DNA from: Thermoanaerobaculia bacterium
GTDB lineage: Bacteria; Acidobacteriota; Thermoanaerobaculia; Multivoradales; UBA5704
Length of the DNA stretch: 64,000 nucleotides
Reading direction: 5' to 3'
NCBI GenBank assembly: GCA_044868005.1
Contig: JBIOVX010000013.1
Coordinates: forward strand, 2,172 to 66,171
In this document: positions 4,665-7,223 of the stretch, piece by piece
Layout of the letters: each line of letters opens with the position of its first letter
How positions within the stretch are numbered: position 1 is the first letter of the stretch
The notes under the pieces: generated by a model
What the model saw: the letters and a program-made list of their open reading frames with translations, nothing else
The model's database searches: none
Told to the model about the DNA's origin: nothing
Position numbers and translations under genes: made by a program

Positions 4665-7223
4665 ATGTCCACGTGCCAGTGCCACCAATGCGATTTCAGG
4701 ACCGCCGCTGCGGACACCGCCGCCCGCGATCCCCACAAGCGGGTGCGCTACTCGACCGGGCTGGTGCTCGGGGTGGACGAGTTCAACCAGGAACAGCTCT
4801 ATCTCATGGAGCGCGACCGCCTCCACCAGCGCGGGCTCCACGGCTACGGCACCGTGCTCGGCCTCGGCGTGGCGGTGCGCGACGGAGCCGACGGCCGCCC
4901 CGAGGTGGTGGTGGCCCCGGGCCTCGCGGTGACGCCGCGCGGCGAGTCGGTGTGCGTGGGGCGCGCCCAGTGCGCCCGCCTCGACGACTGGCTGGCCGCC
5001 CACGCCGGCGACCTGCCGGGGACGGGCTCGCCCCCCGGCTCGCCGCCGCTGGGCTCGCCCGCCGGTCCGCTGTCGCTCTGGCTCGTGCTCTGCGCGCGGG
5101 ACTGCGAGACCGATCCGGTGCCGGTCCTCGGCGATCCCTGCCGCACGCCCGAAGACCTGACGGTGCCCTCGCGCATCGCGGATGACTTCTGCCTCGAATT
5201 CCGGCTGGCGCCGCCGGCGCAGCAGGAAGAGGAGGGCGTGCGGCTTCTCGGCGAGCTGCTCCGCGCCGTGGTGGTGAGCGACGTTCCGGGGCCGGCCGGC
5301 CACCTCACGCCGGAGGATCTGGCGGAGCGGGTGCGGCGCATCACCCCCGCGGGCTCGCCGCCCGCCCTGCCGGACCTCGCCGACCTCCTGGGCCCAAGCC
5401 CGGGTTCGCCCCCGGCGTCGCCGGCGGCCGGTCCCGCGCTCGCCGACCTGACGCTCCATCCGGCCGATGCCGGCGCCGCCCTCGCCGCCGCCTGGCGAGC
5501 CTGGATCACCGAGGTGCGCCCGCAGCTCGCCGGCGGCCAGGCGGGATGCGCCGACGGCGGCGAGCCCTGCGTGCTGCTGGCGCGGCTCGACTTCGCGGTC
5601 GCCGGCTCGCAGGTGGACGGCCCGGTGACGGTGAACGAAGACGAACGCCCGTGGCTGCTCCATACCCGGGTCTTCCAGGAGTGGCTGCCGGCGATCTGGG
5701 CGGCCGCGGCGCTGCCGGCGGCAGGCTCGCCGTCGCCCGGCCCGGGGCCGGGTCCCGGCTCGCCGCCGGTCTTCTCCCTCGTCCACGCCGACCTCCTCGG
5801 CCTCGGCGCCGACGACCACCCGCAGTACCTGCTCGTCGACCCGGTCACGCGCGCCCTGCTCGCCAACCTCAATGCCGCCGGCTTCCGCATCACCGGGTTG
5901 CCGCCGGCCGCCGCCAACGGCGAGGCGGTCATCTTCCAGCAGGCGGTGAAGGTGGGCGATACCGCCGGCGGCGACCTCACCGGCACCTATCCCAACCCGC
6001 AGGTGGACGGCCTGCAGGGCAACCCGGTGGCGCCGGGCGTGCCGGCCAACAACGGCATGGTGCTCACTTGGAACAACGGGCAGTGGGCGGCGGCGCAGGT
6101 CCCGGCGGGCGGCCCCCTCGTCCACGCCAACCTCCTCAGCCTGACCGCCGACGACCACCCGCAGTACCTGCTCGTCAACCCGGCGACGCGCGCCCTCGCC
6201 GCCAACCTCGCCGCCGGCGGCTTCCGCATCACGGGCCTGCCGGCGGCCGCCGCCAACGGCGAGGCGGTCATCTTCCAGCAGGCGGTGAAGGGGGGCGACA
6301 CGGCGGGCGGCGACCTCACCGGCACCTACCCCAACCCGCAGGTGGACGGCCTCCGCGGCAACCCGGTGGCGGCGGGTGTGCCGGCCTTCGCCGGCATGGT
6401 GCTCACCTGGAGCGGCACGCAGTGGGCGGCAGCCCAGATCCCGGCGCCCCCGCCGCCGCCCCCGCCTCCGCCGCCCGACCTGCTGGACACCAACCTGGTG
6501 CGGATCGTCGCCCTGTCGTGGGAGCACGGCACCACCAACCGCCTGGAGCTCATCCACGACGGTAACCGCGCCCTCGGCCTGGCCCTGGCCTTCGGGAGCC
6601 GCGGTCTCGGGCTCGGTCTCCTGGTGCAAAGGAAAACCCTCGACGACCGCACCATACGCCTCTGGGTGCGGCAGCCCGAGCCCGCGACCTCCTTCTTCCG
6701 CCATCTGGAGGTGCCGATCAACGTGGTCCCGGCGCAGGTCGCCGCCACCGGTCCAACCGGGCTCATCACCGAAACCAAGTCGCTGGGCGACGCGGAGGTG
6801 CCGGCGGTGGTCCTGCTGCTCGACCCCGCCATCGCGGATCAGCTCATCGAGCAAGGCGCGCTGCTCACCGTCGAGGTGCGGGGCGAGTTCATCCTCGACG
6901 GTGAGGGCCGTGCCATCGACACCGAGTTCGCGCGCGGCGAGCTCCCCACCGGCGACCGCCGCAGTGGCGCCGAGCTCGGCATCCAGGGGGGCCGCTTCGA
7001 GAGCTGGTTCACCGCCGGCGACCTCATCCTGGACGGCATCAACTTGAACCGCGCGAGCGCCGAGGAGCTCACCGCCATCTCCGGCATCGGCCCGACGCTG
7101 GCCGGGCGCATCGTCGAGGTCCGCGAACGCCTCGGCGGCTTCAGGCGGCCCGAGGACCTGCGCGAAGTCTCGGGCCTCCCGGACAGCGTCATCCGCCGCC
7201 TGGGCGCCACGCGCGATCGCTGA
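4665..7223 (+). CDS. Tail-fibre-like protein: N-terminal adaptor module, 2 x 113-aa repeat, poly-Pro linker, C-terminal ComEA-type helix-hairpin-helix
   Basis: The ORF lies 12 nt after the gpI-like gene, in the Afp13 position. It has internal repeats, 10 consecutive Pro codons (6447-6476) and a C-terminal INLNRASAEELTAISGIGPTLAGRIVEVRERLGGFRRPEDLREVSGLPDSVIRRL. Confidence 0.7.
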   Translation: MSTCQCHQCDFRTAAADTAARDPHKRVRYSTGLVLGVDEFNQEQLYLMERDRLHQRGLHGYGTVLGLGVAVRDGADGRPEVVVAPGLAVTPRGESVCVGRAQCARLDDWLAAHAGDLPGTGSPPGSPPLGSPAGPLSLWLVLCARDCETDPVPVLGDPCRTPEDLTVPSRIADDFCLEFRLAPPAQQEEEGVRLLGELLRAVVVSDVPGPAGHLTPEDLAERVRRITPAGSPPALPDLADLLGPSPGSPPASPAAGPALADLTLHPADAGAALAAAWRAWITEVRPQLAGGQAGCADGGEPCVLLARLDFAVAGSQVDGPVTVNEDERPWLLHTRVFQEWLPAIWAAAALPAAGSPSPGPGPGPGSPPVFSLVHADLLGLGADDHPQYLLVDPVTRALLANLNAAGFRITGLPPAAANGEAVIFQQAVKVGDTAGGDLTGTYPNPQVDGLQGNPVAPGVPANNGMVLTWNNGQWAAAQVPAGGPLVHANLLSLTADDHPQYLLVNPATRALAANLAAGGFRITGLPAAAANGEAVIFQQAVKGGDTAGGDLTGTYPNPQVDGLRGNPVAAGVPAFAGMVLTWSGTQWAAAQIPAPPPPPPPPPPDLLDTNLVRIVALSWEHGTTNRLELIHDGNRALGLALAFGSRGLGLGLLVQRKTLDDRTIRLWVRQPEPATSFFRHLEVPINVVPAQVAATGPTGLITETKSLGDAEVPAVVLLLDPAIADQLIEQGALLTVEVRGEFILDGEGRAIDTEFARGELPTGDRRSGAELGIQGGRFESWFTAGDLILDGINLNRASAEELTAISGIGPTLAGRIVEVRERLGGFRRPEDLREVSGLPDSVIRRLGATRDR
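5778..6455 (+). repeat. In-frame direct tandem duplication, 2 x 339 bp (113 aa), inside the fibre-like gene
   Basis: Unit 1 starts ctcgtccacgccgacctcctcggc at 5778 and unit 2 starts ctcgtccacgccaacctcctcagc at 6117. The protein units are LVHADLLGLGADDHPQYLLVDPVTRAL...TGTYPNPQVDGLQGNPV and LVHANLLSLTADDHPQYLLVNPATRAL...TGTYPNPQVDGLRGNPV. Confidence 0.9.

Follow-up and report, generated by a model that had tools for sequence, protein, structure and literature searches.

Alg19, the tail fibre of AlgoCIS, is a homotrimer whose shoulder is bound to the C-terminal loop of Alg12, a Cis12-type protein, and homology of this shoulder with those of TssK and siphophage receptor-binding proteins has been described. 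The C-terminal Ig-like domains and helical "tip" of Alg19 are exposed, bind the target, and can be swapped. Tail-fibre tips determine the targets of contractile injection systems (CIS), and they are now swapped to retarget CIS particles for protein delivery. Previous reports on ComEA-type proteins showed that Thermus ComEA binds dsDNA and that a Lys pair, K62/K63 (positions +2/+3 after GIG), is essential in Vibrio ComEA. Fibronectin is bound by the ComEA-type helix-hairpin-helix (HhH) motifs of Pasteurellaceae ComE1. A report on Thioalkalivibrio sp. K90mix describes a ComEA-derived tandem HhH (HhH2) at the C-terminus of a secreted DNase, where DNA binding is salt-tolerant.

In this study, we analysed a 64,000-nucleotide stretch of a Thermoanaerobaculia contig (the window), which carries a CIS fibre gene with an HhH2 at its C-terminus. 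Window coordinates, as used in Table 1, are those of the source-contig gene table (locus L001) minus 5336.

Table 1. Position, strand and supporting evidence of the fibre gene, its domains and the neighbouring genes in the window.
Feature	Position	Strand	Evidence
Cis11-like baseplate gene, 3' part (747 aa in full contig; runs off window start)	34..1698	+	contig gene table; tblastn gene order
Cis12-like baseplate protein, 984 aa, Tail_P2_I / CIS12_fam core	1698..4652	+	Pfam, NCBIfam
HhH-tipped tail-fibre gene, 852 aa, Alg19/Cis19 class	4665..7223	+	Pfam, homologues, Foldseek
N-terminal shoulder/neck, aa 1-345	4665..5699	+	family alignment, profile, AF2, Foldseek
Two tandem 113-aa fibre repeats with DDHPQYLL motif	5776..6446	+	Tandem Repeats Finder
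Poly-proline linker, about aa 593-604	6441..6477	+	translation; 12-nt repeat
Tip beta-sandwich ("CT domain"), aa 605-781; LVRIxALSWxH ... GRAIDAEFxRxxLPTGDR ... GxQGGRFESW	6477..7007	+	alignments, AF2
ComEA-type (HhH)2 domain, aa 791-844	7035..7196	+	Pfam HHH_3, PDB sequence matches, Foldseek, conservation table
Second fibre-like gene "fib2", 456 aa	7237..8607	+	NCBIfam CIS13_fam N-terminus, BLASTP, gene order
Two paralogous accessory genes, 386 and 388 aa (8635-9795; 9808-10974)	8635..10974	+	sequences, homologues
Outer-membrane protein, 761 aa	10990..13275	+	Pfam OMP_b-brl E=2.1e-8; sequence
Conserved 688-aa protein, role unknown, just before ATPase	13300..15366	+	gene order
Cis15-type AAA+ ATPase, 720 aa	15392..17554	+	PF00004
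Putative effector, 1951 aa, N-terminal eCIS_core (DUF4157)	17560..23415	+	Pfam PF13699 E=1.7e-11

The plus-strand ORF 4665-7223 translates into 852 aa and ends with a stop codon at 7221-7223. A preliminary description of this DNA had read its last ~60 aa as a ComEA-type tandem HhH module; the peptide was quoted correctly, but its first residue is aa 791 (nt 7035), so that the 7038 given there is off by one codon. The Pfam search proposed there returned HHH_3 (PF12836) on aa 791-844 with E=4.2e-16 and 59.2 bits against a cutoff of 27, and the single-motif family HHH (PF00633) was also above its own cutoff. The ComEA-specific models stayed under their cutoffs: the NCBIfam ComEA models (TIGR01259 / TIGR00426) covered the same residues but scored 42.4 bits (cutoff 152.35) and 40.5 bits (cutoff 53.1). 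PDB sequences matched by the last 67 aa were those of EEPD1, Bacillus and Geobacillus ComEA, 2DUY (a ComEA-related protein of Thermus), and Tex. The HhH family profile matched ComEA 8DSS at 1.8e-18, as well as 8DFK and 2DUY, with PsbU at ~0.007. In an AF2 model of aa 588-852 (pLDDT 92.4, pTM 0.83), the HhH segment reached pLDDT 90-97 and contained four helices by DSSP, consistent with the (HhH)2 fold. Foldseek matched this segment to KIF22 2EDU (probability 1.0, rmsd 2.8 Å over 58 columns) and to ComEA 8DSS (probability 1.0). These results confirm that the C-terminal segment is a genuine ComEA-type tandem HhH module, far beyond chance.

Hairpin 1 of the window fibre is a canonical S-G-I-G and hairpin 2 is S-G-L-P, with 8 residues remaining to the fibre end after aa 844. 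The conservation of the HhH across the family was 95% for N4, 89% for G18, 96% for A22, 100% for R29, 93% for G46, and 80% for R56. Both Gly residues of hairpin 1 were common (G16 70%, G18 89%). In hairpin 2, the first Gly was kept in 93%, and the third position was G (29%), T (27%), S (23%), or P (12%). Since the hallmark positions are 89-100% conserved across phyla, the HhH is not decaying.

We then determined the class of the protein that carries this domain. From the N- to the C-terminus, the fibre consists of the shoulder, the two 113-aa repeats, the poly-Pro linker, a beta-sandwich of ~180 aa, and the HhH2. Tandem Repeats Finder gave the repeats a period of 339 with 2.0 copies and 87% matches, and homologues carry one or two copies. 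The alignment showed that the shoulder/neck (aa 1-345) is kept family-wide regardless of the type of C-terminus. Among the 120 homologue matches listed, the N-terminal ~330 aa were common to nearly all, and the C-termini varied between the sandwich with or without HhH, a YadA-like stalk, an S74 chaperone, and long repeat arrays. No PDB sequence matched aa 1-602, and Cis19 was reached only by the family profile, which matched residues 19-88 of Anabaena All3314 (=Cis19; 7b5h) with E=1e-5. The AF2 model of the shoulder (pLDDT 76) matched chains AA/AB/AC of 7b5h in Foldseek (E=4e-5, probability 1.0), with a low TM-score (0.28), and matched TssK weakly (E 0.02-0.1). Because the N-terminal domain matches the Anabaena Cis19 trimer and, weakly, TssK, ORF 4665-7223 is a tail fibre of a CIS belonging to the Alg19/Cis19 class and not to the Afp13 class. 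Membership in the Afp13 class or in CIS13_fam was rejected, since NCBIfam CIS13_fam (NF053767) covered aa 26-101 at model positions 6-81 only, with 33.5 bits against a cutoff of 370, and aa 1-602 had no PDB sequence match. The fibre is probably homotrimeric. No signal peptide, membrane anchor, or hydrophobic N-terminal leader was seen in it by eye. The preliminary description had called the carrier fibre-like and the HhH distal; the first is borne out by the CIS operon and the Cis19-type shoulder, and the second agrees with the N-terminal docking shoulder (Cis19, TssK) and with the exposed C-terminal tip of Alg19.

The HhH does not stand at the tip by itself. It had been proposed that a DNA-binding tip replaces the usual receptor-binding knob; an HhH does lie at the very tip, but a knob-like beta-sandwich directly precedes it. 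This sandwich was all-beta in the AF2 model, with pLDDT above 90. It had no Pfam match, and Foldseek against PDB and BFVD returned nothing at E<=1e-3, only generic Ig-like folds. An exhaustive profile search with the sandwich found 747 cluster representatives at E<=1e-3, and a homologue search with the sandwich alone found only 3 proteins, where candidate selection was probably limiting. The HhH was present in 116 of 191 sandwich proteins, and another 62 stop 4-13 residues (typically ~6) past the sandwich without an HhH. Both classes were phylogenetically intermixed. Among the 121 family proteins first collected, 56 had the HhH at the extreme C-terminus, with 0-10 residues after it. Judging from these sequences, the tip has the beta-sandwich as its constant core, and the HhH2 on it is optional and dispensable, an accessory that has been gained or lost repeatedly, always at the extreme C-terminus.

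Because about a third of the sandwich fibres lack an HhH and the two classes are intermixed, the HhH is not needed for sandwich folding. A role as a trimerisation or folding element, including the buried trimerisation element that the preliminary description had named as contrary to its reading, is therefore unlikely. The linker between sandwich and HhH ranges from 6 to 271 residues across the family, which argues against an obligatory rigid interface. In the window fibre this linker is short, and AF2 modelled it with confidence (pLDDT above 90, pTM 0.83), so that part of the HhH surface may pack against the sandwich.

The gene neighbourhood was examined for its CIS content. By Pfam, the CIS core comprises CIS_tube, Phage_GPD, Phage_base_V, GPW_gp25, Tail_P2_I, and AAA, together with eCIS_core, and the operon order is tube, GPD, base_V, gp25, Cis11, Cis12, fibre ... 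AAA, eCIS_core. The cluster thus has the gene content of an extracellular CIS (core genes, Cis15, DUF4157 cargo). The Cis12-like protein matched Pfam Tail_P2_I (E=3.7e-9), NCBIfam CIS12_fam (148.8 bits), and TIGR02242 (86.6 bits), and by analogy it is where the fibre shoulder would be expected to dock. The first ~85 residues of fib2 share the shoulder motif (CIS13_fam N-terminus, 35.2 bits), and BLASTP aligned fib2 with the HhH fibre at 30% identity over 84 aa. In 12 of the 12 related loci found, fib2 lies directly 3' of the HhH-fibre gene. The two accessory paralogues have an N-terminal PGDLITAQ motif, a helix-like heptad segment, and then an IPT/TIG region. They had no Pfam match at E<=0.01; PF01833 is present in their homologues, one of which is named IPT/TIG by NCBI. 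The outer-membrane protein has a signal-peptide-like N-terminus (by eye), an unknown domain of ~600 aa, and a C-terminal OMP beta-barrel, and its counterpart is kept in the related loci L003/L008 and L005. The gene of the 688-aa protein contains a 21-nt x 8.9 repeat at 14227-14412. The Cis15-type ATPase has 42-80% identity across loci (tblastn), and the putative effector occupies the same gene position in loci L003, L012, L014, and L017.

A genome scan for related loci was performed with an alignment of 9 sequences as the query. The gene order was conserved in 10 related loci (tblastn), and wherever a related locus was long enough, its fibre gene was directly 3' of Cis12, as it is in the window. 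The same layout and gene order were found in MAGs of Acidobacteriota, Rhodothermales relatives, and Proteobacteria. The carriers, all of them MAGs, belong to Thermoanaerobaculia, Holophagales, Rhodothermales/Salinibacter/Salinivenus, Paracoccaceae/Tateyamaria, and Gammaproteobacteria; they come from soil, marine, and hypersaline settings, and several are hypersaline Rhodothermales relatives. No phage relatives of the fibre were found in 2.9 million IMG/VR contigs, and INPHARED gave 18 weak HhH-only matches, in short unannotated records or in comEA-like genes beside prophages. An origin in a phage fibre design was rejected on these grounds. In locus L017, the main fibre lacks the sandwich and HhH, and another accessory protein carries a C-terminal HHH_5 (E=2.4e-10). 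Recurrence of HhH on accessory IPT/TIG proteins was rejected, because none of 19 close homologues of gene 8635-9795 carries one and the L017 HHH_5 is a single example. Several homologues, few in number, have short Arg/Lys-rich tails instead of the HhH (e.g., RARTRSRTRSRTSSRRG). In our literature searches, HhH or ComEA was not connected with CIS or tail fibres in any paper; an apparent co-occurrence in an ANME-3 paper was due to an author's name. The HhH-tipped CIS fibre design recurs in many uncultured bacteria, and no description of the design was found in these searches.

What the HhH2 does was considered by analogy with its relatives. With confidence somewhat short of even, we propose that it may be a multivalent, low-specificity adhesin that holds CIS particles on extracellular DNA (eDNA). 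As in AlgoCIS, the shoulder would dock on Cis12, and the fibre C-terminus would point away from the baseplate as the target-contacting tip. As in other members of the HhH family, the HhH2 would bind the sugar-phosphate backbone of dsDNA without sequence specificity, with the contact made by hairpin backbone amides and conserved Arg residues. With 6 fibres of 3 chains each, a particle would display as many as 18 copies, which would make the adhesin multivalent, and particles could be held by DNA that coats cell surfaces, lies in biofilm matrix, or comes from the lysing producer. The beta-sandwich and/or fib2 would be responsible for recognising the specific target and for triggering. It is possible, though rather doubtful, that eDNA itself is the primary, reversible receptor of this phage-tail-like injection machine, and that particles home to and stay on DNA-coated cells, eDNA-rich matrix, or the cloud of DNA around a lysed producer.

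HhH1 shares its signature, GIGPxLAxRIVxxR, with 2DUY. The net charge of the HhH averages -1.6, compared with -2, -2, and 0 for ComEA domains, and the HhH is the least acidic part of a fibre that otherwise carries -7 per 100 aa. The Arg/Lys-rich tails and the L017 HHH_5 fusion were counted as analogous replacements, in favour of DNA binding. Counted against it were the degenerate hairpin 2 (G-L-P), the possible packing of the HhH on the sandwich in the AF2 model, the fibronectin binding of Pasteurellaceae ComE1, and the missing Vibrio-type Lys pair, position +3 being Leu in 70% of members. Of the analogous replacements, HHH_5 occurs in one locus, close homologues of the accessory genes in the window have just IPT/TIG, and basic tails are few. 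Strong non-specific DNA binding could also be a handicap during particle assembly, which takes place in a cytoplasm full of DNA.

The lack of the Lys pair and the degenerate hairpin 2 would also suit a tip that is an adhesin for a non-DNA ligand, either a surface protein or a phosphate-rich or polyanionic surface polymer. Candidates for the polymer are LPS core, teichoic-acid-like polymers, polyphosphate, and sulfated polysaccharide. Pasteurellaceae ComE1 binds fibronectin type III modules via the same HhH motifs as DNA, the position of the domain equals that of the target-binding tip of Alg19, and the Arg/Lys-rich tails of some homologues suit any polyanion. However, ComE1 still binds dsDNA, and the window domain is much nearer to DNA-binding ComEA, EEPD1, and Tex than to the non-DNA protein PsbU. 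The independent HHH_5 fusion in L017 points to a property shared by HhH domains, DNA-backbone binding, and the environmental carriers have no obvious fibronectin-bearing host. We consider a non-DNA ligand unlikely.

The assembly of CIS particles in the cytoplasm also raises the alternative that the HhH2 binds DNA inside the producer, so that fibres tether particles to their own nucleoid in a cytoplasmic or lysis-exposed CIS such as those of Streptomyces and Anabaena. ComEA forced into the cytoplasm binds and compacts the E. coli chromosome. In Anabaena, the fibre-like Cis13 together with Cis12 anchors the particle to an internal membrane, not to targets, and particles are exposed only after cell death. 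However, the operon here carries an eCIS_core effector, phage-like fibre repeats, a second fibre, and an outer-membrane protein with a signal-peptide-like N-terminus, and many sister fibres have no HhH or have adhesion-type tips (YadA-like stalk, S74 chaperone). We consider a nucleoid tether quite unlikely. Ranked last, and about as unlikely, is an HhH2 without a ligand, which would cap the tip structurally, help it to oligomerise or assemble, or be the decaying leftover of a domain fusion: HhH2 domains mediate dimerisation in some proteins (XPF/ERCC1), and the short, confidently modelled linker and the degenerate hairpin 2 would fit, but the intermixed HhH-less sandwich fibres, the hallmark conservation across phyla, and the variable linker length all speak against it.

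To our knowledge, no tail fibre has been reported to bind a nucleic acid as its ligand. If the HhH tip binds DNA, nucleic acid or another polyanion would be a new ligand class in fibre biology, the activity of the extracellular CIS (eCIS) would be spatially tied to eDNA in biofilms, sediments, and brines, and the domain would be a ready module for tethering engineered particles to DNA scaffolds. If eDNA is the receptor, an eCIS clade found in bacteria of soil, marine, and hypersaline settings would be closely linked to the ecology of eDNA. The analysis also defines an unclassified beta-sandwich tip domain with hundreds of cluster representatives, for which Pfam has no family and the PDB no structural neighbour.

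The fibre was compared with known systems. Its N-terminal region is a weak structural match to the trimeric baseplate-docking shoulders of TssK and siphophage receptor-binding proteins, whereas TssK heads bind the T6SS membrane complex and carry no HhH. The adenovirus-like fibres Afp13 and Pvc13 occupy the same slot after the baseplate genes and have a modular target-binding C-terminus, but no sequence or structural similarity to the window fibre was detected. The ComEA/ComE1 domains (8DSS, 8DFK, 2DUY) have the same tandem HhH fold and belong to the same Pfam family, HHH_3. HhH1 is nearly identical to that of 2DUY, the structural Arg (Vibrio R71) is invariant in the fibres, and the net charge is similar. 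In contrast to ComEA, the HhH here forms the end of a fibre that precedes it with 790 aa, is encoded in a CIS operon and not in a competence locus, scores below the ComEA cutoffs, has no Vibrio Lys pair, and often has a degenerate hairpin 2. The DNase of Thioalkalivibrio sp. K90mix, an extracellular protein, has the same type of domain as a portable module at its C-terminus. That carrier is an enzyme acting on DNA, whereas the window protein is a structural fibre in which no catalytic domain was detected.

The class of Alg19 and of Cis19, the "crown" trimer of the Anabaena tCIS, resembles the window fibre in being encoded in a CIS cluster and in its matching N-terminal domain. Both share a plan of conserved shoulder/neck, variable distal part, Ig-like beta domains, and small helical tip. 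However, sequence likeness is confined to about 70 N-terminal residues (TM-score 0.28), and the window fibre, at 852 aa, is far shorter than the 1444-1476 aa of Alg19/Cis19. Among the HhH profile matches at E<=1, 9wt0 was absent; this entry, a PKD-domain protein of 1443 aa, is probably Alg19. Unlike in Alg19/Cis19, the middle of the window fibre consists of DDHPQYLL repeats, the HhH fibre is always trailed by a second fibre gene, and the helical tip is a recognisable ComEA-type HhH2.

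The HhH fibre gene, ORF 4665-7223 (+), is genuine and translates to 852 aa, and the ~60 C-terminal residues quoted in the preliminary description matched this translation exactly, starting at aa 791 (nt 7035). These residues had been read as a ComEA-type helix-hairpin-helix module, for which a Pfam HHH_3 search was proposed. HHH_3 (PF12836) matched aa 791-844 with 59.2 bits (cutoff 27, E=4.2e-16), and the single-motif HHH family also scored above its Pfam cutoff. Two NCBIfam ComEA models fell below cutoff at the same residues (42.4 against 152, and 40.5 against 53.1). The protein is therefore not itself a ComEA, although it carries a ComEA-type domain. 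The C-terminal 265 aa of 32 family members were made into a profile and searched against PDB. This profile matched EEPD1, which contains two tandem HhH (HhH2) units (1e-29), ComEA of Geobacillus and Bacillus (1.8e-18 and 8e-16), and the Thermus ComEA-related protein 2DUY (3e-13). Tex and KIF22 were also among the matches, and PsbU, a non-DNA-binding HhH protein, appeared at about 0.007 only. AF2 models were built as monomers. The model of aa 588-852 was confident (pLDDT 92.4, pTM 0.83), and its helical end matched KIF22 2EDU (rmsd 2.8 A over 58 columns, probability 1.0) and ComEA 8DSS (probability 1.0). Profile, PDB matches and AF2 fold thus confirmed the ComEA-type module, and the HhH2 at the fibre C-terminus is not a chance match.

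Features of the contractile injection system (CIS) operon, the HhH fibre and the adjoining region (nt, window positions)
Feature	Position	Length	Remarks
CIS_tube, Phage_GPD, Phage_base_V, 560-aa gene, GPW_gp25			operon start, in this order, on the source contig
Cis11-like		747 aa	after GPW_gp25
Cis12-like, Tail_P2_I	1698-4652	984 aa	directly before HhH fibre
HhH fibre	4665-7223 (+)	852 aa	
Fibre: shoulder/neck	4665-5699 (aa 1-345)		
Fibre: two tandem repeats	5776-6446	113 aa each	DDHPQYLL motif; copies 87% identical
Fibre: poly-Pro linker			between repeats and beta domain
Fibre: all-beta domain (tip sandwich)		~180 aa	LVRIxALSWxH ... GRAIDAEFxRxxLPTGDR ... GxQGGRFESW
Fibre: HhH2	aa 791-844		8 residues to protein end
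fib2, second fibre-like gene	7237-8607	456 aa	after HhH fibre
Two paralogues	8635-9795, 9808-10974	386 and 388 aa	after fib2
Outer-membrane protein	10990-13275	761 aa	
688-aa gene	13300-15366	688 aa	just before AAA+ ATPase
Heptapeptide array	14227-14412		within 688-aa gene; 21-nt unit x ~9
AAA+ ATPase			between 688-aa and eCIS_core genes
eCIS_core (DUF4157) protein	17560-23415	1951 aa	last in listed operon
GC dip	22001-24000		
Pentapeptide-repeat protein and glycosyltransferase ORFs	23814-28545		directly downstream of CIS cluster
Two longest glycosyltransferase ORFs	24806-27751, 26362-28545		overlapping, different frames

The window start falls within the CIS operon, and the gene order was read on source contig JBIOYT010000259.1 (NCBI GCA_044870275.1). 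The NCBIfam model CIS13_fam matched the first ~100 residues of the HhH fibre weakly (33.5 bits, cutoff 370). A profile built from aa 1-345 matched Anabaena All3314, part of the tCIS baseplate structure 7b5h, at residues 19-88 (E=1e-5). For the aa 1-345 model (pLDDT 76), Foldseek ranked all three All3314 chains of 7b5h first (E=4e-5, probability 1.0, low TM-score), then T6SS TssK as a weak match. All3314 is Cis19, the 'crown trimer' of Anabaena. Its AlgoCIS counterpart Alg19 is a homotrimeric tail fibre with a TssK/RBP-like shoulder that docks onto the C-terminal loop of Alg12, and the AlgoCIS particle can be retargeted by replacing the Alg19 tip. Given the Cis19/TssK-like N-terminus and this description of Alg19, the HhH fibre is best filed, by sequence and model, in the Alg19/Cis19 class. 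An Afp13/Pvc13-type fibre was rejected, since the N-terminus matches Cis19 and CIS13_fam scores far below cutoff. [quoted passage not shown] In the shoulder, C143, C147 and C159 were invariant, and C103, C295 and C302 were found in at least 90% of members. The fibre assembles in the cytoplasm, and these cysteines may coordinate a metal or, once the fibre is released, pair as disulfides.

Several observations were made on the neighbouring genes. Residues 811-854 of the Cis12-like protein matched Glyco_hydro_42 marginally (21.9 bits, cutoff 21) and may be an extra carbohydrate-related domain on this baseplate protein; the Holophagales orthologue shows this weak match too. fib2 has only its first ~85 shoulder-motif residues in common with the HhH fibre and lies directly 3' of the HhH-fibre gene in 12 of 12 related loci. 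It had no Pfam match and no PDB sequence match; a second fibre set, an adaptor or a hetero-oligomer partner are candidate roles. The two paralogues have near-identical N-termini (MPHxxQPVRPGDLITAQ) followed by a helix-like heptad segment. They had no Pfam match at E<=0.01, IPT/TIG domains are present in homologues, and the products may be short whisker-like trimers. The outer-membrane protein has a signal-peptide-like N-terminus (by eye), a ~600-aa unclassified domain, a poly-Pro stretch and a C-terminal OMP beta-barrel. Its counterpart is kept in Holophagales and Thermoanaerobaculia loci, and an exported outer-membrane protein is unusual among CIS structural genes. The 688-aa protein upstream of the ATPase is conserved and carries a TAGGE[AT]S array. 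The putative eCIS_core effector had a weak, sub-threshold match near its C-terminus (16.1 bits, cutoff 20) to T5orf172, which we take to be a GIY-YIG-type nuclease domain. The flanks have a GC content of about 0.72, and the dip to 0.60 at the 3' end of this gene may mark a swapped toxin module. The glycosyltransferase ORFs beyond it are large and multi-domain.

A search of 5.8 billion proteins yielded 153 homologues of the HhH fibre. HhH was present in 56 of the query plus the best 120 of these 153, always 0-10 residues from the C-terminus; this proportion, like the one among sandwich proteins below, comes from a hit list ranked by similarity to the HhH fibre and is not an unbiased frequency. 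Other homologues shared the N-terminus and carried YadA-like stalk repeats, an S74 chaperone domain or long repeat arrays at the C-terminus. In a scan covering 185,579 species genomes, 12 loci came up, and every one lies in a MAG. The closest was from Thermoanaerobaculia (62%), which places the window itself probably in Acidobacteriota, near Thermoanaerobaculia. The others were from Holophagales, Rhodothermales/Salinibacter/Salinivenus, unclassified Bacteroidetes, Paracoccaceae/Tateyamaria and Pseudomonadota/Gammaproteobacteria. The order GPD ... Cis11, Cis12, HhH fibre, fib2 ... 688-aa gene, AAA, (eCIS_core) was kept on every sufficiently long contig. No relative was found in IMG/VR viral contigs, and deposited phage genomes gave only weak, HhH-only matches located outside fibres. 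Conservation of the HhH-tipped fibre extends widely across uncultured diderm bacteria.

The tip sandwich had no Pfam match and no neighbour at E<=1e-3 in PDB or BFVD. An exhaustive search with this domain alone as profile matched 747 cluster representatives, 335 of them at E<=1e-10. HhH accompanied the sandwich in 116 of the 191 sandwich proteins examined, after a linker of 6 to 271 residues. In 62 the protein ended 4-13 residues (typically ~6) past the FESW motif, 12 had other tails, and one had a partial sandwich match only. Several of the other tails were short and Arg/Lys-rich (e.g. RARTRSRTRSRTSSRRG, RRARERATPAKQTARKRRG). Such tails followed FESW, with HhH2 absent, in P0214, P0236, P0222, P0232, P0206 and P0191, and are consistent with polyanion binding as the selected property of the appendage. 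The nearest neighbour was HhH-bearing for 18 of 58 HhH-less sandwich domains, and mean identity between the classes (0.35) equalled that within them. Because sandwiches with and without HhH are intermixed, the sandwich is the constant part of the tip, and HhH2 is an appendage gained or lost repeatedly.

DNA binding by the fibre HhH2 is judged slightly more likely than not. Hallmark positions were strongly conserved across phyla (N4 95%, L11 95%, G18 89%, A22 96%, I25 91%, R29 100%, G46 93%, R56 80%), and R29 corresponds to R71 of Vibrio ComEA, a residue needed in vivo. In HhH1, the signature GIGPxLAxRIVxxR barely differs from GIGPVLARRIVEGR of 2DUY, and Thermus ComEA was reviewed as a dsDNA-binding, inner-membrane-anchored protein. 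Mean net charge was -1.6, with reference ComEA HhH domains at -2, -2 and 0; the protein as a whole is very acidic, with HhH2 its least acidic part. One report describes a ComEA-derived HhH2 as a portable C-terminal DNA-binding module of a secreted salt-tolerant DNase. The polycationic tails found where HhH otherwise sits also count in favour. The complete genome CP030158.1 contains a related CIS locus, L017, with a main fibre that carries no sandwich and no HhH. A third accessory protein of this locus (L017:13545-14864, 439 aa) has the VRPGDLITAQ N-terminus of the two paralogues, then long low-complexity TFPT repeats, and ends in a domain of another HhH family, HHH_5 (E=2.4e-10). This looks like an independent HhH acquisition within the same CIS clade; that it is a single locus counts against. 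On the other side, Vibrio ComEA needs its K62/K63 pair to bind DNA, and this pair is not kept here, with Leu at position +3 in 70%. About 70% of members, this one included (G-L-P), have a degenerate hairpin 2. The HhH-sandwich linker of this fibre is short and confidently modelled, so one HhH2 face may be occluded.

Pasteurellaceae ComE1 binds fibronectin through the same HhH motifs, which also counts against the DNA reading, and an adhesin for a non-DNA ligand is an unlikely but real competitor. Binding of DNA inside the producer, tethering a non-released CIS to the nucleoid, has an analogy in Anabaena, where fibre-like proteins act as anchors, and is considered improbable. A purely structural HhH2 is likewise improbable, since the sandwich also occurs without HhH2 and linker length varies so widely. 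We tentatively favour an Alg19-class fibre, probably trimeric, whose tip combines the sandwich with an accessory DNA-backbone binder that would retain particles on extracellular DNA. HhH2 would bind the backbone multivalently and non-specifically and would hold particles to DNA on cell surfaces, in the matrix or released by the producer itself, while the sandwich and/or the second fibre would provide specific recognition and triggering.

A full-text literature search found no paper connecting CIS or tail fibres with HhH or ComEA, and the homologues are named in databases only as 'helix-hairpin-helix domain-containing protein' or 'competence ComEA-like HhH protein'. The HhH-tipped design also brings an unclassified tip sandwich domain, and moderate surprise is expected among CIS or phage specialists. 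CIS fibres with modular tips are already known in Alg19/Cis19 and Afp13/Pvc13, and ComEA-type HhH2 likewise has precedents, both as DNA receptor and as portable module. The parts are thus individually known, and it is their combination in one CIS fibre that had not been described in the literature searched.
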